Shown here in pieces: positions 30,419-38,750 of a stretch of DNA of 64,000 bases; the stretch's first letter is position 1, and each line of letters starts with the position of its first letter. The translations under genes were made by a program, and so were the position numbers. A model generated the notes under the pieces. That model was not told the DNA's origin. It saw only the letters and a program-made list of their open reading frames with translations, and searched no databases. The stretch spans positions 199,799 to 263,798 of the forward strand of contig CAWANT010000006.1 of the NCBI GenBank assembly GCA_963783495.1, in the 5' to 3' direction. Source of the DNA: an uncultured Chloroflexia bacterium (GTDB lineage Bacteria > Chloroflexota > Limnocylindria > QHBO01).

Positions 30419-31665
30419 TCAGCGCGCGCGGCTGAGGGTGACGACCAGCGTCCCGTCCGTGTCCTCGACCGTGGCGGAGGGGCCTTCCACGCTCTGCACG
30501 GCGCCGACCATGTCGAAGTCCGCCGCATGACTGGCGCGGTACACGAACTCGCCGGTGGGGCCGAGCGACAATGTCACGCCGCGCACACCCTCGACGCGCT
30601 CGAGCGCCTGCTTGAAGCTGGTGATGGCGCCGAAGCTGCCCAGCCCCTTGACGATGACCGCGGTGGACGTCTCGCTGCCGTTCGCCGGCGCGGGCGCTGC
30701 GGCGGCGACCGGCTGCGTGCCGCCGGCGATGCGCTGGTCGAGCTGCGCGAGTCGCGCGGCCAGGCGGTTGTCGGTCCCGGCATCGGGCACTTCCGGCGCG
30801 GCCTCGGCCAGCCGTCTCGGCGGTGCCTTCGGCCTCGGCAGTGGTCGCTGCATCGGCGCCGGCCTCGGCTGTCTCGCCGATCGCGGCCATGCGCGGGTCA
30901 TCGGCTGGGACCGCCACATCGGCGGCGGCGTGCCTCGGCCGGCGGTGTCGCGCTGTTCAGCTCAGGTGCGCGGGGCATGCGCTTGGCCGCGGCCACGAAC
31001 GCCGCCGGGTCGCTGATCTCGCCCAGCTGGGCGAAGAACGCCGCCAGGTCACGCTCGTGGTCGGCGAGCCGTGCGCGGGTCGCCTCGATATCGCGCTCGC
31101 TGGCAGCACGGTGCTCCGACACTTGCTGATCCACCTTGGTGCGGCGCGCGTCACGCCGCGTCTCGGCCTCAGACTTGATCCGCTCGATCTCGTCGTGCTC
31201 CCAATCCGCGACCCCCTGCAGGTCGAGGTCAGCGGCCCGCCGCAGGTCGGCTTCCTTCTCGGCGGCCGTGGCGTTGAGCTTCTCGATGTGCGCGTCGACG
31301 GCGGTGCGCAGGTCGGCAAGGCTGGCGTCGCGTGAGCTCTCGGCCACGCCGCGCATGGCGCCGACCAGGCTGACCAGGAACTCGCTCGACCCGCCTTCCG
31401 GCATCACGTCAGCGGCATGGGTGTCTGACGTCGCCCCGCGTGGCTCGTCGGCCGGCGTCTCGGTCACCGTCGTCTCAGGAGCCGACGGCTCGCGGGTCTG
31501 GGCGTCGCCGGTCTGGGCCTCGGCCGGGGCGTCGGGGGTCATGGTGTCGACCGCGCTTGTCGCGGTCTCGCTGGCGGCCTCATCGTGCTGCACGTCGTCC
31601 TCGCCCTGCTTGTCATTGGCGGTCCAGGAGAGTCGGAAGCCCGTCCGCCGTCGGTCCATGCCCAT
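30419..31665 (-). CDS. hypothetical Ala/Asp/Glu-rich coiled-coil protein (one frame break ~30900)
   Basis: ORF 30898..31665 (acidic N-terminus, then [53 protein letters not shown]) joins ORF 30419..30919 (C-terminal [45 protein letters not shown]). Confidence 0.5.
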
Positions 31666-31802
31666 GCTGGTGATGCTGCCTCCTGCACGCCGTTGGTTGG
31701 CGCGCTGCGTTGGGCCATGCTAGCCCGGCCCATGCTCGAAGGCGCAGCGACCCGAAGTACCGCCTTGGAACGCCGGTAGTACCAACCGGGTCGGTTGCTA
31801 CC

Positions 31803-32443
31803 ATGCGCCCGATGTTCGCCGAGACATGGCCCGACGTGGCCCTTCAGGTCGTCCTGATCGTCCTCGCCGCGGTGGCCGCCTACGTCGCCATCCGCATTGC
31901 CGTGGCGACGGCGGTGCGCCATCTGATCGCGCGGCGCACCGAAGATGCAGACGCCGGCAATCTCAGCCAGGTCGAGCTCGCGCGCCGCGTCACGACGTTG
32001 GGCCAGCTGCTGGTGAAGATCGCGGCCGCGGTGATCGTGATCGTCGCGACGCTGATGGTGCTGGAGGCGTTCAGCGTGGACATCGGTCCGGCCATCGCGG
32101 GCCTTGGCATCGCCGGCCTGGCGGTCGGCTTCGGCGCCCAGGCCTTGATCAAGGACTGGCTGTCGGGCATCTTCATCGTGGCCGAGAACCAGTACAACGC
32201 GGGCGAGCACGTCCGCATCGCCGGGGTGGAGGGCGTGGTCGAGGATTTCAGCCTGCGACGGACCATGCTGCGGGACGAAGACGGTTCCGTGCACCACGTG
32301 CCGAACGGCCAGATCATCGTGGCCTCGAACCTGAGCCGCGGTCGCCATGCCGCACCGGCCAAGGTGGGATTCGGCGCCGGGTCGAGCGCCGCAGGCGCCA
32401 GCAGGGACGCGAAGGACTCGGAAGGGAAGCCGCCGGAATCGGC

Positions 32444-32447
<4 letters not shown>
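31803..32447 (+). CDS. small-conductance mechanosensitive channel family protein (short C-terminus)
   Basis: In ORF 31710..32447 the internal start [12 protein letters not shown] leads into TM helices and the pore-lining [32 protein letters not shown] plus a beta domain. The usual C-terminal alpha-beta domain is absent or lost to an indel. Confidence 0.7.
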
Positions 32448-33755
<1,308 letters not shown>

Positions 33756-33827
33756 GCGGGCCCGAGAATAGCACGCGCCCGCGCGCAAACCCCCATGGCC
33801 CGATGGTCGTGGGATGCTTGACGCGCC

Positions 33828-34322
33828 ATGCCTGAGCCGATCGCGATCGGGTCCGTCGACACCGCCTGGGGACCGATGCAGCTCGCCACCACGCCACGCG
33901 GCATCCTGCTGATCGGGCGCGGTGATGATCCCGCGCCACTGCTCGCCGCGGTGCAGCGACGCCTGCCACGCGCCGATCTGGACGGCACGCGGCCCGCCCA
34001 GGCGGAGTGGCTGGCCGCATGGGTCGCCGGCGAGCGGCGCGACCTGCCGCCCGTTGACCTGCGCGGCCTGTCGGACTTCGACATGGCGGTCTACCGGGCC
34101 GTCCGCGAGATCGGCTGGGGCGATCGCGCCACGTACCGCGACATCGCGATGACCGTCGGACGCCCGGGCGGCGCGCGCGCGGTCGGCGGGGCGATGGCGC
34201 GCTGCCCCATCTTCCCCGCCGTCCCATGCCACCGCGTGGTGCGCGCGGCCGACGGCTGGAGCGGCTGGGGGGCCAGCGGCGACGCGCGCAAGCGCGTCCT
34301 GCTCGATCGGGAAGCGCGTTGA
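33828..34322 (+). CDS. ogt: methylated-DNA--protein-cysteine methyltransferase
   Basis: Intact 164-aa ORF with [38 protein letters not shown]; PCHRVV is the active site. Confidence 0.85.
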
Positions 34323-34344
34323 CGGGGTCGCCTAGCATCGGCAC

Positions 34345-34698
34345 ATGGCGACCCTGGACGATGCCCACCGGATCGCATCGGCCCTGCCCGAGGCAACGCC
34401 GGACCCCGGCGGGTTCGCCTACCGCGTTGGCGGCAGGCTATTCACCTGGACATGGATGGAGCGCGTCCAGCCCAAGCGTCCACGGGTGGCGAATCCGGAG
34501 GTGATAGCCGTCAGGGTGGCGGACGAGACCGAGAAGCAGGCGATGCTGGCGCTGGATCCTGACGTCTTCTTCACCGAGCCGCACTACGACGGCTACCCGG
34601 CCGTGCTTGTCCGGCTGCCCGCCATCGATGAGGCGCTGCTGGAGACGGTCGTCGGCGACGCCTGGCGGCTGCGAGCGCCGCGGCGGCTCAGCGGGTAG
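34345..34698 (+). CDS. MmcQ/YjbR-family protein
   Basis: Intact 117-aa ORF. The pattern FAYRVGGRLFTW...EPHYDGYPAVLVRL is recalled from the YjbR-like family. Confidence 0.55.
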   Translation: MATLDDAHRIASALPEATPDPGGFAYRVGGRLFTWTWMERVQPKRPRVANPEVIAVRVADETEKQAMLALDPDVFFTEPHYDGYPAVLVRLPAIDEALLETVVGDAWRLRAPRRLSG

Positions 34699-35527
34699 CA
34701 GCCCCGGCGCGGCCGGCGCGACGCGGGTTGTCGGCCACCGCGGCCAACACCGACTTCACCTCGAACGGTGTCAGGCCGCGATGCTTGGCCAGGATCAGGG
34801 CCACCAGACCGGTCACGTGCGGCGCGGCGAAGCTGTTGCCGGTGGCCACCGTGCTGCCGCCGTCCTTCCACGCGATCGGCACGTCGACGCCCCATGCCCC
34901 GAACTCGACCGGCGGCGACGGGTTGTAGTAGAGCCGCCACGGATCGGCCTCGCCATGGGCGGCGACGGAGATGACGGTGGAGAACAGCGACGGATAGCTG
35001 GCGGCCGGCACGTTGTTGGCGGCGCTGACCAGCGGAATGCCGCGGAAGTACGCCTTGTCGACCAGGTCGTGGAAGACGGAGAACATGGCCTCGCTCTTCG
35101 ACGAGAGGCTCAGGTTGAGCACGTCGACGCCGTGGTCGATCGCCCACTCCAGTCCGGCGGCGAAGGCCGCGCCCTTGCCGCGCAGGTCGGACCCGAGCAC
35201 CCGGATGGAGACGAGCTCGACCTCCGGGGCCATCCCCAGGATGATGCCGCCGCAGGCGGTGGCATGGCCGTACATGTCCGCCCCGTCGTCTGGCACCACG
35301 TTGGGCTCCCCGTCGACCAGCTCGATCGCCACGCTCTCGACCACCCTGCCGTTCAGGCGCGGGTGCGAGATCTCCAGGCCACTGTCGACGATGCCGACTC
35401 GGATGCCGGCGCCAGTCGAGCCGCCCCACGCCCAATCGCGGCTGATGCCACGCAGGCGCATGCGGCGGGCAAGGCCCGGGACGTCCGTAAACGGCTCGGA
35501 CCAGGCCGGCAGGTCGAGGCCGCTCAC
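34688..35527 (-). CDS. S8 subtilisin-family serine peptidase without signal peptide
   Basis: Intact 279-aa ORF with the triad contexts VGIVDSGL (Asp), YGHATACGGI (His) and TGNSFAAPHVTG (Ser). The N-terminus is not hydrophobic. Its GTG start overlaps the GAF gene stop (GTGA). Confidence 0.9.
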   Translation of the reverse strand: MSGLDLPAWSEPFTDVPGLARRMRLRGISRDWAWGGSTGAGIRVGIVDSGLEISHPRLNGRVVESVAIELVDGEPNVVPDDGADMYGHATACGGIILGMAPEVELVSIRVLGSDLRGKGAAFAAGLEWAIDHGVDVLNLSLSSKSEAMFSVFHDLVDKAYFRGIPLVSAANNVPAASYPSLFSTVISVAAHGEADPWRLYYNPSPPVEFGAWGVDVPIAWKDGGSTVATGNSFAAPHVTGLVALILAKHRGLTPFEVKSVLAAVADNPRRAGRAGAATR

Positions 35528-36309
35528 CGCCGCCTTGGCGCTCGCTCCGCGTGGCGCGCCACCACGTTCAGGATGTCGGCGACCAGCGTCAGGTCGCGCT
35601 CCCCCAGGGTACGCAGCGCCTCGACGTGGTCGACCAGGTGCCAGAAGGGCGTATCGGCATGGTCGTCCAGGCCGCGGGTCGCGTCGGACACGATGGCGTC
35701 GACCTGCTCGGTGGTCAGGCTCTCATCGCCGATGTGCTCCAGGATGTGGGTCATCAGGCGCGCCGTCCCACGCTGCACGCGCGTGGCCGTGATGGCGGCC
35801 GTGGCCTGCGCGGCGAAGACGGCCAGCAGCTCCATATCGCGCAGCGAGAAGCTCTCCAGGCCATTCTTGTCGAGGACCTGGAGCACGCCGATGGTGCCCT
35901 CCTCGTCATAGAGGGGCACGGCCGCAACCGAGCGCGGCACGTAGCCGGTCCGCTCCGCCGCCTTGCGATCGAAACGCGGGTCGGAGGCGACGTCGGTGAG
36001 CGACACCGCCTGGCCGGTGGAAAAGACGAAGCCGGCGATGCCCTCGTTCGGCTTGACGGTCAGGCCGACCGCGCCGGCGCCGTGCTCGCCGGCCGCAACC
36101 CGGTATTCCAGGCGGTCCGGGTCGCGCTCGAACAGAGCGATCGACGACGCCTCGGCGTCGAACAGGCTGACGGTGGCGTCGACGATCGACTGGAGCAGCT
36201 TCTGCTCCACCGGGCCCTGCAGACCGCGGGCAACGACAGACCGCCGGGCCACCGCCTTCAGGGCGGCGACCGCGGCGGTCAGATTCGCGTCAGGAGGCCG
36301 TTCAGGCAC
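35524..36309 (-). CDS. GAF-domain protein
   Basis: Intact 261-aa ORF with a GAF-like core (LLQSIVDATVSLFDAEASSIALFERD...GIAGFVFSTGQAVSLTDVASDPRF...VAAVPLYDEEGTIGVLQVLDK) and a helical tail of about 90 aa. GTG start. Confidence 0.85.
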   Translation of the reverse strand: MPERPPDANLTAAVAALKAVARRSVVARGLQGPVEQKLLQSIVDATVSLFDAEASSIALFERDPDRLEYRVAAGEHGAGAVGLTVKPNEGIAGFVFSTGQAVSLTDVASDPRFDRKAAERTGYVPRSVAAVPLYDEEGTIGVLQVLDKNGLESFSLRDMELLAVFAAQATAAITATRVQRGTARLMTHILEHIGDESLTTEQVDAIVSDATRGLDDHADTPFWHLVDHVEALRTLGERDLTLVADILNVVARHAERAPRRR

Positions 36310-36481
36310 CCCGCTGGTGGTAGTGCCCTTCGGTGTCGCTGTCGTCCTCGGTCACTGAAATGTCGTCCGACAACGAAGAACCAGGCAGATGCTTGTGGCC
36401 CTCGGTGTCGTCTTCCGGCGTCGCCGGATACGGCAGCTTCTTATGTCCCTCGGTGTCCTTCGGGTCCTGATCTTCTCCCAT
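36302..36481 (-). CDS. small acidic His-containing repeat protein (59 aa; below the ORF-track cut-off)
   Basis: My reverse-strand translation from the ATG at 36481 is MGEDQDPKDTEGHKKLPYPATPEDDTEGHKHLPGSSLSDDISVTEDDSDTEGHYHQRGA*. GAGGTGAT lies 6 nt upstream. Third-codon positions are mostly G/C. The TGA overlaps the GTG of the GAF gene (GTGCCTGA). Confidence 0.55.
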   Translation of the reverse strand: MGEDQDPKDTEGHKKLPYPATPEDDTEGHKHLPGSSLSDDISVTEDDSDTEGHYHQRGA

Positions 36482-36602
36482 TGCCCCATCACCTCTTCTG
36501 TCATGTCGGTCGCCATCGGGGCGTCCGTTGGCGTGAACCTTATATCCCCCGCCGCCTTGCGAATAGCCCTATTGTGACGCTCAATCTATCGGTTGCGCGA
36601 CA

Positions 36603-37286
36603 CTATTTTTTCTTCGGCTCCGGCTCGCCGGCCGCGTCGGCCTCGTGCGCCTCTTCGGCGGTGGGCATGGTGCCGGCCGCGGCCTGGGCCATGCTGATCA
36701 GCGATTCGGTGTTGCCCGCAAAGACCTCGTCGATGACGCCGTATGCCTTTGCCTCGTCCGCGCTCATGAAGTAATCGCGCTCGGAGTCGCGCCGGACCTT
36801 CTCGTACTCCTGCCCGGAGTGATCGGCCAGGATATGTATCAGCCGATCCGTCAGGTGCAGCATCTCCTTGACCTGGATCTCGACATCCGGCGTGTTACCG
36901 CGGAAGCCGCCCGAGCCCTGGTGGATCATGATTCGGCTGTTCGGCAATGCGTAGCGCTTGCCTTTCGCGCCCGCCGCCAGCAGCACCGCACCCATCGAGG
37001 CGGCCTGGCCGATGCAGATGGTGCTGACCGGTGCCTTCAGGTACTGGATCGTGTCGTAGATGGCCAGGCCGCTGGTGACGACGCCGCCCGGCGAGTTCAC
37101 GTAGAGGCTGATGTCCTTCTCCGGGTCCTCCGACTCAAGGAACAGCAGCTGGGCAATGACCAGGTTGGCGATGTGGTCCTCGATGGTGTCGCCCAGGAAG
37201 ATGATTCGCTCCTTGAGCAGGCGCGAATAGATGTCGAAGGCCCGCTCGCCGCGGGCGCTCGACTCGATGACCATGGGGACCAGCAT
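36603..37286 (-). CDS. clpP: ATP-dependent Clp protease proteolytic subunit
   Basis: Intact 227-aa ORF with [24 protein letters not shown] (Ser) and [10 protein letters not shown] (His), plus an acidic/Lys C-terminal extension. Confidence 0.95.
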
Positions 37287-37292
37287 GTTCGT

Positions 37293-38651
37293 CTACTCCT
37301 GGGTGGGCTCGGGGTCCGCCTCTTCGGCCGATGGTGCCGCCTCCGCGGCTGGCGCATCGGTGCCGAGGGCGCGATCGATCAACGTGTCAACCAGTTTACG
37401 GTTGCGCAGCGTCATCCGCAGGTAGCTGCGACCGCGCCGCGAGGTCAGGTACTCGGTGAGCTTCGGGTCGTTCCCGTACCGCTCCAGCTGCTCGTCGATC
37501 TCCGCCTGGACATCCTCGGGCGTGGCGTCGACCCCCTCCTTCTCGGCGATGGCCGACAGCACCAGCAGCACCTTCACTCGCCGTGAGGCTGGCTCGCGCA
37601 GCTCGGTCGCCAGCTCCTCCGGCGTCTGCTTCGCCAGGGCCAGGTACTGGTCAAGGCCGATGCGCTGGGCGGCGAGCCGGCTTCGCAGCTCGTCGCGCAT
37701 GATCTCGATCTCGTTGGCGATCATCACTTCCGGCAGCTCGACCGTGGCGTTCGAGGCCGCGAAGTCGATGATCCGGTCCGCGAAGGCGTGACGCGCATCG
37801 TCCTGCGCGCGGCGCCCCAGCGCGTCGCGGATCTCCGCCCGCAGCTCATCGACGGTGGCCGCCTCGCTCACGCTCGTGGCGAACTCGTCGTCCACTTCGG
37901 GCAGCAGGCGTTCGCGCAGATCGAGCATGGTCACCTCGAAGTGAGCCGCCTTGCCCTGGAGGTCCTCGACCCGATAGTCGTCGGGGAAGGTGATGTCGAA
38001 GCCCTTCGTCTCCTCGATCGTCATGCCGACCAGGTTGGCCTCCCAGCCGGGGATCATGCGGTCCTCGCCGATCACCAGCGGCAGACGATCGGCGGAGCCG
38101 CCCTCGAACGGTTCGTTGTCGATGGTGCCGACGAACTTGACCGCCGCCACGTCTCCCTCCGCCGCCGAACGGTCGTCGATCGGCCGCAGGGTGGCCTGCT
38201 CCTGGCGGAGCTCGGTGATGACGCCCTCGACCTGCTCATCGGTCACGTCCGGCACTTCCAGCGAGAAGGGGTAGCCCGTGTAGGCGCCCAGCGTCACCTC
38301 CGGCCGGACGGCCACGGTGGCGGTGAAGCGCACCGGCTGGCCTTCCGCCACCACGGCCGGGTCGATATCGACCTCGGGCTGGTCGATGGGCATGATGGTG
38401 ATCTGGTCCAGGGCGGCGTCGTACGAGTCGCTGACCAGGTGGTCGATCGCCTCGGCAACGATCGCGCCGCGTCCGACGAACCGGTCGATCACGTGGCGCG
38501 GCGCCTTGCCCGGGCGGAAGCCGGGCACCTTCGTGCGCTCGGCGACATGGCGGTAGGCGGTGGCGAAGTGGCGGTCGACCTCGGGGGCCGGGACCTCGAT
38601 GTCGAGCTGGACGCGCGATCCGGGCTGCGGGTTGGACGAGACAGTGACCAT
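37293..38651 (-). CDS. tig: trigger factor
   Basis: In ORF 37293..38708 the internal ATG gives MVTVSSNPQPGSRVQLDIEVP and VPGFRPGKAPRHVIDRFVG. It sits in the tig-clpP-clpX neighbourhood. Confidence 0.93.
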   Translation of the reverse strand: MVTVSSNPQPGSRVQLDIEVPAPEVDRHFATAYRHVAERTKVPGFRPGKAPRHVIDRFVGRGAIVAEAIDHLVSDSYDAALDQITIMPIDQPEVDIDPAVVAEGQPVRFTATVAVRPEVTLGAYTGYPFSLEVPDVTDEQVEGVITELRQEQATLRPIDDRSAAEGDVAAVKFVGTIDNEPFEGGSADRLPLVIGEDRMIPGWEANLVGMTIEETKGFDITFPDDYRVEDLQGKAAHFEVTMLDLRERLLPEVDDEFATSVSEAATVDELRAEIRDALGRRAQDDARHAFADRIIDFAASNATVELPEVMIANEIEIMRDELRSRLAAQRIGLDQYLALAKQTPEELATELREPASRRVKVLLVLSAIAEKEGVDATPEDVQAEIDEQLERYGNDPKLTEYLTSRRGRSYLRMTLRNRKLVDTLIDRALGTDAPAAEAAPSAEEADPEPTQE

Positions 38652-38666
38652 GAAGCTCCTGATGCG

Positions 38667-38750
38667 TGGTGGGCGAGGCGAGATTCGAACTCGCACGTCT
38701 TGCGACACCGGCTCCTAAGGCCGGCGCGTCTGCCGTTCCGCCACTCGCCC
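38667..38750 (-). tRNA. tRNA-Leu (anticodon UAG)
   Basis: The reverse strand reads GGGCGAGTGGCGGAACGGCAGACGCGCCGGCCTTAGGAGCCGGTGTCGCAAGACGTGCGAGTTCGAATCTCGCCTCGCCCACCA. It folds by hand as a cloverleaf with a long variable arm, anticodon loop CUUAGGA and an encoded CCA. Confidence 0.9.

Follow-up and report, generated by a model that had tools for sequence, protein, structure and literature searches.

We analyzed a three-gene locus on the minus strand of a 64,000-nucleotide stretch of DNA (hereafter the window) from an uncultured Chloroflexia bacterium, contig CAWANT010000006.1. The genes encode a 59-amino-acid tandem-repeat protein (positions 36302-36481), a 261-amino-acid GAF protein (35524-36309) and a 279-amino-acid subtilase of family S8 (34688-35527). 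An earlier interpretation made from the letters alone (the sequence-only reading) had proposed that a small open reading frame (ORF), the GAF gene and the S8 gene constitute an overlapping unit of an undescribed kind. Comparisons with homologous loci led us to conclude that these genes make up the core of a conserved module that is so far undescribed.

Translation of the small ORF gives MGEDQDPKDTEGHKKLPYPATPEDDTEGHKHLPGSSLSDDISVTEDDSDTEGHYHQRGA, identical to the peptide quoted in the sequence-only reading. It contains three DTEGH units, located by pattern match at 36443-36457 (GACACCGAGGGACAT), 36395-36409 (GACACCGAGGGCCAC) and 36323-36337 (GACACCGAAGGGCAC) on the minus strand. The units had also been described as DNA repeats, and the degenerate 15-mer pattern GACACCGARGGNCAY indeed has three matches in the 64 kb window, all within the 59-amino-acid ORF, and none in 100 dinucleotide-preserving shuffles of the window. 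Tandem Repeats Finder reported just a trivial 10-nucleotide (nt) array, because the spacing of the units is too irregular. The proposed ribosome-binding site is present as a Shine-Dalgarno-like GAGGTGAT at 36488-36495, read from the sequence, 6 nt ahead of the ATG at 36481. The GC content at the first, second and third codon positions is 0.67, 0.42 and 0.73, which is coding-like and in line with the reported preference for G or C at third positions, although weaker than in the neighboring genes (0.90-0.92 at third positions). Stops interrupt both alternative frames over the ORF in the window. The reported dip in GC content was recovered as well, with 0.60 at 36300-36599 versus 0.67-0.75 over the downstream GAF and S8 genes. 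No Rfam family reached its gathering score at this low-GC leader (L31 leader, 23.8 bits versus 35). Scans of 34300-36800 for sigma-70 promoters and intrinsic terminators gave no matches and were uninformative.

In GTGCCTGA (36302-36309), the repeat gene's stop codon and the GTG with which the GAF gene starts share nucleotides, and the GAF N-terminus aligns with those of its homologues. In the sequence GTGA (35524-35527), the GAF stop likewise overlaps the GTG that starts the S8 gene, a 4-nt overlap that is shared with locus L024. Both overlaps are thus real, as claimed, but their interpretation as a sign of coupled translation does not extend to the family as a whole, since most relatives have a gap of 10-70 nt between the repeat and GAF genes. 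Coupling by overlap is accordingly a trait of the window lineage. Hydrophobic N-termini and transmembrane-like segments are absent from all three proteins (highest Kyte-Doolittle 19-residue window at most 1.38).

The conservation of the small ORF was examined in protein and metagenome collections. A word-indexed search of 5.8 billion proteins returned eight homologues of the 59-amino-acid peptide, which share an invariant QDPKDTEGHK and contain two to four D[T/V]EGH[K/Y]H units. The gene order in locus L001 is tig, clpP, peptide, (broken) GAF, S8 and clpX, as in the window. Loci L002-L004 have another neighborhood, in which the peptide gene still precedes the GAF gene, after which a further gene begins; in L002 this third gene matches S8. 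For a broader sample we used the GAF protein as an anchor and collected 80 species-representative loci, the best 80 of 116 relatives. All loci come from metagenome-assembled genomes, and several are nanopore assemblies with frameshifts. Most are labeled Candidatus Limnocylindria or Chloroflexota/Chloroflexia, and a few bins are labeled otherwise. Because the best 80 of 116 relatives were taken, the sample represents one class only, not counting a few contigs that are probably mis-binned.

An S8 orthologue with 64-96% identity lies directly downstream of the GAF gene in 80/80 of these loci. In every locus with upstream sequence, an ORF with 2 to more than 10 units of D-D-[T/V]-[E/S/T]-G-H ends just before the GAF gene; the apparent exceptions proved to be DDVSGH or DDVTGH variants, or frame-shifted nanopore assemblies. 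Among 71 complete repeat genes, the motif frame is open in 71/71, and in 50/71 neither of the other frames is. The D[TV]EGH sequence is specified by 41 different 15-mers that vary at third positions. The overlapping Arg-rich frame was considered as the true gene and rejected; the seemingly conserved peptides of the two other frames (TPRA, HRGP) only shadow the motif codons. Thus, the open motif frame and the synonymous variation lead us to reject both the Arg-rich frame and a chance ORF, and we conclude that the 59-amino-acid ORF is a real, conserved gene. The sequence-only reading had itself named conservation of the Arg-rich frame instead of the DTEGH frame, separation of the GAF and S8 genes in relatives, and lack of a translation signal as findings that would speak against it; the results went the other way on all three, and the predicted conservation of the repeat gene beside GAF and S8 was confirmed in the relatives.

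The window protein belongs, by its sequence, to the shortest class of a family of DD[T/V]EGH tandem-repeat proteins. The 71 complete proteins are 32-191 amino acids long (median 116) and contain 2-9 units (median 5). A motif logo of 380 units gave frequencies of.57,.70,.75 and.95 for four consecutive D positions, followed by T.68/V.29 and E.89; G and H were set by the search pattern and are hence unscored. Most gaps between a His and the T/V that follows it span 10-12 residues, and a second peak lies at 24-25. Spacer sequences are hypervariable and net basic, and Cys is absent from the repeat proteins, which consist of 16% D, 6.4% H and 7% E. In about 70% of the proteins, the tail after the last motif is only 4-8 amino acids long, which defines the repeating unit as an acid run followed by [T/V]EGH and a short tail. 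The N-terminal leaders are clade-specific, and three types were observed: MGQDQDPKDTEGH or MSDQNDPKDTEGH; MDNYRRRPPMEGFSRPGxLGGEAxDDDxVEGH; and MDKNIRVRGKVSGDDDVEGH. In the closest relatives, whose GAF proteins are 92-94% identical, the peptides are 48-61% identical and already differ in spacers and copy number. Similarly, identities of 97% for GAF and 96% for S8 go with about 55% for the repeat protein. This pattern of substitution indicates that purifying selection acts on the motif only, with the remainder of the repeat protein turning over fast.

A profile built from 37 members retrieved 149 proteins, and all of those with a name are called "hypothetical protein". A HMMER scan of 1.84 billion cluster representatives produced 1,364 matches at E <= 1e-3 and 129 at E <= 1e-10. 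Searches of Pfam and NCBIfam with the 59-amino-acid peptide and six longer repeat proteins gave compositional noise only (for example Ser-Asp repeats of SdrC or ClfA, far below cutoff). Full-text literature searches for the DTEGH motif, for the combination of GAF, subtilisin, cyclic nucleotide monophosphate (cNMP) and MFS, and for Limnocylindria returned nothing relevant. The suggestion that the system is undescribed therefore held for Pfam, NCBIfam, PADLOC and the full-text literature. Two unusual repeat proteins were observed. P0276 (381 amino acids) combines an N-terminal cNMP-binding-like region with about 10 DDAEGH repeats and is either a run-on call or a genuine fusion, which would connect the repeats with cNMP sensing. 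In the protein at L170:6000-6589, three motifs precede a transmembrane-like segment of hydrophobic character (LLMTGVLVGTVALGAAGGVGLSAL) and a tail rich in Ala and Gln; it may be a membrane-anchored repeat protein.

The S8 protein is a confident member of its family, with a Pfam Peptidase_S8 E-value of 2.4e-25 and 89.9 bits against PF00082 (cutoff 21.8). D48, H88, the oxyanion residue N171 and S232 align with subtilisin BPN' (E 2e-26) in the order D-H-S, and the catalytic residues are kept wherever the aligned segment covers them (87 loci). The alignment with mature subtilisin BPN' begins at about residue 36, which, together with the hydropathy profile, shows that there is neither a signal peptide nor an I9 propeptide. 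Both the intact catalytic contexts and the missing propeptide had been noted in the sequence-only reading. The comparisons thus point to a cytoplasmic, prodomain-less subtilase with an intact active site. A second conserved element, (D/E)LPAW(S/A)EPF, was seen in nearly all of the roughly 60 orthologues aligned, three of which lack the Pro. It lies some 35 residues ahead of the catalytic Asp; in the window it corresponds to LPAWSEPF at amino acids 6-13 (35489-35512).

Models of known subtilase classes all scored below their cutoffs on the S8 protein: 118 bits versus 278.75 for mycosin (TIGR03921), with no hydrophobic N- or C-terminal segment in the protein; 106.6 bits versus 165 for QhpE (NF049966), the second-best NCBIfam match, with no qhp neighbors found; and 26.2 bits versus 421 for cyanobactin PatA/PatG (TIGR03895). 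These scores identify the protein as a member of a distinct subfamily. The motif [LVI]-[IFLV]-P-[YFH] of the intracellular subtilisin proteases (ISPs) has no fitting 4-mer in the S8 N-terminus, which reads LDLPAWSEPF. An AlphaFold2 (AF2) model of S8 from the single sequence was unusable, with a predicted local distance difference test score (pLDDT) of 37.

The GAF protein has a single GAF domain at amino acids 36-173 (35791-36204; Pfam E 2.7e-17). It matches Pfam GAF, GAF_2 and GAF_3, with scores of 64 and 63 bits, above gathering, for PF01590 and PF13185. More than 2,000 homologues were found. The top 120 share 69% identity or more and have a length of about 258 amino acids, and the few that are named are labeled Chloroflexota or Candidatus Limnocylindrales. 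The AF2 model of the GAF core has a pLDDT of 84-92 and matches GAF structures in Foldseek at E 1e-13 to 1e-10, with 4mcw, 1ykd, 2zmf and 5w10 (with cyclic AMP, cAMP) at the top. By both sequence and AF2 fold, the closest structures are the GAF domain of an HD-GYP phosphodiesterase (4mcw) and GAF domains that bind cyclic nucleotides, namely those of CyaB2 (1ykd), PDE10A (GAF-B), cAMP-bound Lcd1, PDE2, PDE5 and PDE6. The family conserves LDK-x5-F-x3-DME, a partial match to the NKFDE signature, N-K-x(n)-F-x3-D-E. Taken together, sequence and model suggest that the ligand is most likely a cyclic nucleotide. The C-terminal extension (amino acids 180-261; 35527-35772) is conserved in alignments and comprises about 80-85 residues that include an invariant PFW..LV and are helical, with low pLDDT, in the AF2 model. 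Because these residues were modeled at low confidence, the fold search returned GAF domains only. No Pfam family covers amino acids 180-261, which agrees with the earlier description of a GAF protein lacking an enzymatic output domain.

Clustering of the flanking ORFs in the 80 loci revealed two recurrent partners of the core. One is a Crp/FNR-type regulator (cNMP_binding and HTH_Crp_2) immediately upstream of the repeat gene. The other is an MFS_1/MFS_3 transporter of 540-590 amino acids with a C-terminal cNMP-binding domain (MFS_3-cNMP), which is located upstream of Crp or right after S8; its start overlaps the S8 stop in L024. Among named proteins, the enterobactin exporter EntS comes nearest to it, with an NCBIfam score of 86 bits that falls short of the cutoff. 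The cNMP domains of both partners carry FGE..L...R[ST]A, which we take to be the canonical phosphate-binding cassette of CAP-family domains. Partners were detected by tblastn thresholds within short flanks. Among the 50 loci with at least 3.5 kb on either side, Crp was detected in 43/50, MFS_3-cNMP in 37/50 and a class III cyclase in 9/50. Across the class, the partner proteins are 58-96% identical to those of the window.

In a motif-first search, a DNA pattern for two units was matched to metagenome contigs. In 10 contigs the repeat gene is flanked on either side by 3 kb or more; of these, 8 contained GAF, 8 S8, 5 Crp, 8 MFS_3-cNMP, 4 a cyclase and 9 any partner. The corresponding numbers for the 45 contigs with a total length of 4 kb or more were 31, 28, 22, 17, 16 and 40. 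The GAF and S8 genes occur together near the repeat gene in distant lineages too. The repeat, Crp, GAF, S8 and MFS_3-cNMP genes are found in four different orders and strand arrangements in L085, L086, L087/L088 and the P0220 locus, some of them with cyclases alongside; S8 is 47-61% identical to that of the window wherever DNA was available. L091 contains all five genes, partly as frameshifted fragments. In our comparisons, these distant, rearranged loci are the strongest evidence for a wider module.

Several further features of these neighborhoods were observed. The fusion of an MFS_3/EntS-like transporter with a C-terminal cNMP-binding domain recurs (L058:2918-4690, L024:7571-9196, L085:6616-8343), is apparently uncharacterized, and is weakly similar to the "bacteriocin-type transport-associated" cNMP proteins of NCBIfam TIGR03896. 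Class III cyclases often flank the module outside the window lineage (L085:2449-4311, L087:1-1735, L087:6396-9938; 16/45 contigs), either as CHASE2-cyclases or as large cyclase-AAA_16-TPR proteins. In one Limnocylindria subclade (L058 and L044, L046, L051, L053, L056, L062-L070 and others), the S8 gene is followed on the same strand by genes for a homogentisate-dioxygenase-like cupin (405 amino acids, L058:7737-8954) and a histidine-phosphatase-family protein (160 amino acids, L058:8981-9463). These two genes probably represent lineage-specific synteny outside the module; no HgmA homologue was found elsewhere in the 64 kb window. Limnocylindria-type loci were also present in bins named Steroidobacteraceae, Methylomirabilota, Binatia, Angelobacter and Pleomorphomonadaceae (L020, L021, L023, L025, L037, L040, L049, L058), which are probably mis-binned or mislabeled contigs.

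What might the module do? The simplest role for a protease encoded beside a motif-repeat protein is to cut it, and the presence of Crp, MFS_3-cNMP and cyclases in the wider module suggests cyclic-nucleotide control. We tentatively favor, with somewhat less than even confidence, a processing core in which a cNMP-gated cytoplasmic subtilase cuts a tandem-repeat precursor once per repeat. A class III nucleotidyl cyclase would be the likely source of the signal. The cyclic nucleotide would bind the stand-alone GAF sensor, which would gate its partner S8 subtilase, with the intrinsically disordered repeat protein as the putative substrate and D-D-D-[T/V]-E-G-H as the candidate recognition element for the conserved partners. 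A single cut per repeat would release peptides some 14-16 residues long, each comprising the acid run, [T/V]EGH and a tail of 4-8 residues; in clades with long spacers the length would be about 28. Transcription would likely be controlled by the Crp-type cNMP-responsive regulator. Where present, the EntS-like MFS_3 protein with its cNMP domain would likely export the fragments, a step that we consider less probable than the processing itself. Spacers and copy number change rapidly while the partner genes are nearly constant, and a conserved recognition motif among variable inserts is what a multi-cassette precursor would be expected to show. The more ambitious version, a cNMP-gated ribosomal peptide factory of Limnocylindria and some other high-GC lineages with a Crp switch and MFS export, has a real chance of being right but is less likely than not; the exported acidic-histidine peptides would then serve as signals or metallophores.

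A number of results weigh against this interpretation. No cleavage site could be derived, and a mixture of residues (R, K, Q, S, P, L) occupies the putative boundaries between units. The loci with DDV[S/T]GH variants (L046, L083, L084) show no co-varying or discriminating column in S8 or GAF. The NKFDE motif of the GAF protein is matched only in part, its cNMP ligand is a prediction, and its C-terminal region lacks a confident AF2 model. No modification enzyme is conserved in the neighborhoods, and the product is therefore perhaps not a RiPP (a peptide made on the ribosome that carries post-translational modifications) in the strict sense. Export of a 15-mer by an MFS pump would be unusual. 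Seven of the 50 loci with long flanks, namely the window, its tig-clpP lineage and L010, have no adjacent Crp or MFS_3-cNMP gene, and homologues of these two partners are absent throughout the 64 kb window. Conversely, L089, L090, L093, L158 and L178 have a repeat gene with no GAF or S8 gene within 3-7 kb.

These orphan repeat genes also speak against an alternative in which the repeat protein is not consumed but acts as a multivalent regulator or pseudo-substrate, its DD[T/V]EGH units binding GAF or blocking the S8 active site. As a disordered polyampholyte it would restrain S8, or the adjacent Crp, until released by the cyclic nucleotide, and the true targets of the protease would lie elsewhere. 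Such a role would explain why a consistent P1 residue is not visible, and a freely varying copy number fits an avidity element. Binding of small disordered proteins in dependence on cyclic GMP (cGMP) is within the capacity of GAF domains, and PDE6 GAF domains in complex with their inhibitory subunit P-gamma are among the fold matches. Short peptide segments that lie across the active site are known to keep intracellular subtilases inactive (PMC6220982), and Crp is the most persistent neighbor of the repeat gene outside Limnocylindria. However, an inhibitor and its target should co-evolve tightly, yet everything but a motif of 6-8 residues drifts, and the frequent MFS_3 exporter, sometimes translationally coupled (L024), would be left without a role. 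We consider such a regulator the main rival of the processing model, though unlikely. The composition of the repeat protein, rich in D, E and H and free of Cys, and the restriction of conservation to the acid run and [T/V]EGH would also suit binding or buffering of a metal (Zn, Ni, Cu, Ca) by the protein or its fragments. Possible sites include a D-x-D-x-E-G Ca loop, or an X-X-His Cu/Ni site exposed by a cut before E-G-H. A ribosomal metallophore would then be exported by the MFS protein, with its Pfam MFS_3 match and EntS as its nearest, sub-cutoff, named relative, while GAF-S8 controlled production or turnover. But each unit has one His only, many have just one or two Asp, and the fit to the DxDxDG Ca loop is loose; moreover, the neighborhoods contain no Fur, Zur, CsoR, ArsR or uptake receptor, and the regulators are of the cNMP type. 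We judge a metal-related function improbable, although it is compatible with either the processing or the regulator interpretation, since it concerns what the protein or its fragments do.

The two remaining alternatives have far less in their favor. A chance or shadow ORF in a GC-rich leader, with GAF-S8 alone being functional, could account for the short length of 59 amino acids, the position below the ORF-listing cut-off and the third-position GC content of 0.73 versus 0.90 in the neighbors. It is scarcely credible given a frame that is open in all complete genes with synonymous variation, 1,364 sequence clusters, a ribosome-binding site, independent gene calls in many assemblies and no Rfam family at gathering score. 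An anti-phage defense or toxin-like protease system is suggested by a generic PADLOC "subtilase" match of S8 (68 bits) and by the resemblance of the cNMP domains to those of Pycsar effectors. It is very improbable, since the GAF and repeat proteins have no PADLOC match, no specific system was recognized and the flanking genes tig, clpP and clpX are housekeeping genes. The class-wide presence and the level of partner identity look like vertical inheritance rather than a patchy defense island.

In the proposed mode of action, the module would most resemble systems in which a precursor has its own S8 protease, namely cyanobactins and QhpC/QhpE, as well as the kexin-processed tandem-repeat propeptides of eukaryotes, and its protease is built like intracellular subtilisins; it differs from each of them. 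QhpE is a small subtilisin-like protease without a signal peptide that cleaves QhpC, a peptide from the same operon, in the cytoplasm prior to export (PMC7876137). By analogy, this pairing of a cytoplasmic S8 enzyme with a co-encoded small peptide may count as a precedent, but the module lacks the radical-SAM protein QhpD, the flavoprotein QhpG, the ABC exporter and the dehydrogenase subunits, and its repeat protein is, unlike QhpC, a Cys-free tandem repeat. In the ISPs of Bacillus and Planococcus, a motif in an N-terminal extension lies across the active site and inhibits the enzyme (PMC6220982). These proteases likewise have no signal peptide or I9 prodomain and carry an N-terminal motif about 35-40 residues before the catalytic Asp; however, the motif of the module is (D/E)LPAW(S/A)EPF and not [LVI]-[IFLV]-P-[YFH], and linkage to a GAF protein or to a repeat peptide is not a feature of ISPs. 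The cyanobactin proteins PatE and PatA/PatG resemble the module in that cytoplasmic S8 proteases are encoded beside a precursor with conserved recognition sequences flanking variable cassettes, the number and sequence of which vary among close relatives. In contrast to cyanobactin clusters, the module has no heterocyclase, macrocyclase insert, DUF domain or Cys/Ser/Thr-rich cores; it is accompanied by a GAF sensor, by Crp and by an MFS protein gated by cNMP, and DD[T/V]EGH is unrelated to the cyanobactin recognition motif. Because the defining models and motifs of the cyanobactin, QhpE and ISP classes were tested and gave no qualifying match, we place the module outside these classes.

Further parallels are found in eukaryotes. 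Kexin-type S8 proteases cut tandem-repeat propeptides such as yeast alpha-factor, fungal KEX2-processed repeats and insect apidaecin, which contain many copies of a short peptide with conserved acidic or basic processing sites, are labile in copy number, and are processed at dibasic sites in the secretory pathway. The module would be analogous in having many copies of a short peptide in one polypeptide beside an S8 protease, but it is bacterial and cytoplasmic, follows no dibasic rule and is coupled to cNMP sensors. The pairing of the PDE6 GAF domain with P-gamma offers no more than an analogy, that of a cNMP-type GAF domain with a small, charged, disordered protein; there is no sequence relationship, and PDE6 is a phosphodiesterase and not a protease partner.

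In the window, the core is preceded by tig (37293-38708) and clpP (36603-37286, between tig and the core), and followed by clpX within the ORF 31539-34232, all on the minus strand. In this lineage only (the window and L001, L005, L007, L008, L009, L011 and L054), the core is inserted between clpP and clpX and splits the usual tig-clpP-clpX order. The clpX-containing ORF is 897 amino acids long, with the ClpX zinc finger beginning at residue 169, and its upstream part falls in an unusually GC-rich stretch (0.75-0.80, 33900-34300); clpX probably starts much further downstream or has an unusual N-terminal extension. A YjbR-like gene of 117 amino acids on the plus strand (34345-34698; Pfam YjbR E 1.7e-07) is convergent with the S8 gene, the 3' ends overlapping by 11 nt, and is kept at the same position in the closest relatives L005, L007, L008, L011 and L054.

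The Limnocylindria, a class of uncultured Chloroflexota, abound in soils and fresh waters, and we know of almost no experimentally characterized biology in this class. A small precursor co-encoded with its own subtilase is a known kind of system, of which the module may, by analogy, be a variant. What is new is the DD[T/V]EGH family, the obligatory association of this family with a subtilase that lacks a prodomain and a GAF protein that stands alone, and its setting among Crp, cyclases and a transporter that bears a cNMP domain. This unannotated family comprises at least 1,364 sequence clusters around one short invariant motif, and its shortest members are missed or ignored by gene callers, as happened in the window. 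Three types of cyclic-nucleotide sensor, namely Crp, the CAP-type domain on the transporter and GAF, are tied to a protease, a pairing that we did not find described. If the precursor model is true, the module would be a bacterial, cytoplasmic counterpart to the kexin-processed repeat peptides and would provide a defined, testable output of cAMP/cGMP signaling in a poorly known phylum; if the peptide-factory reading is true, the products would be a new class of bacterial secreted peptides with their own processing logic. The presence of the module in 80/80 sampled loci suggests that it is likely to be important to the physiology of Limnocylindria.

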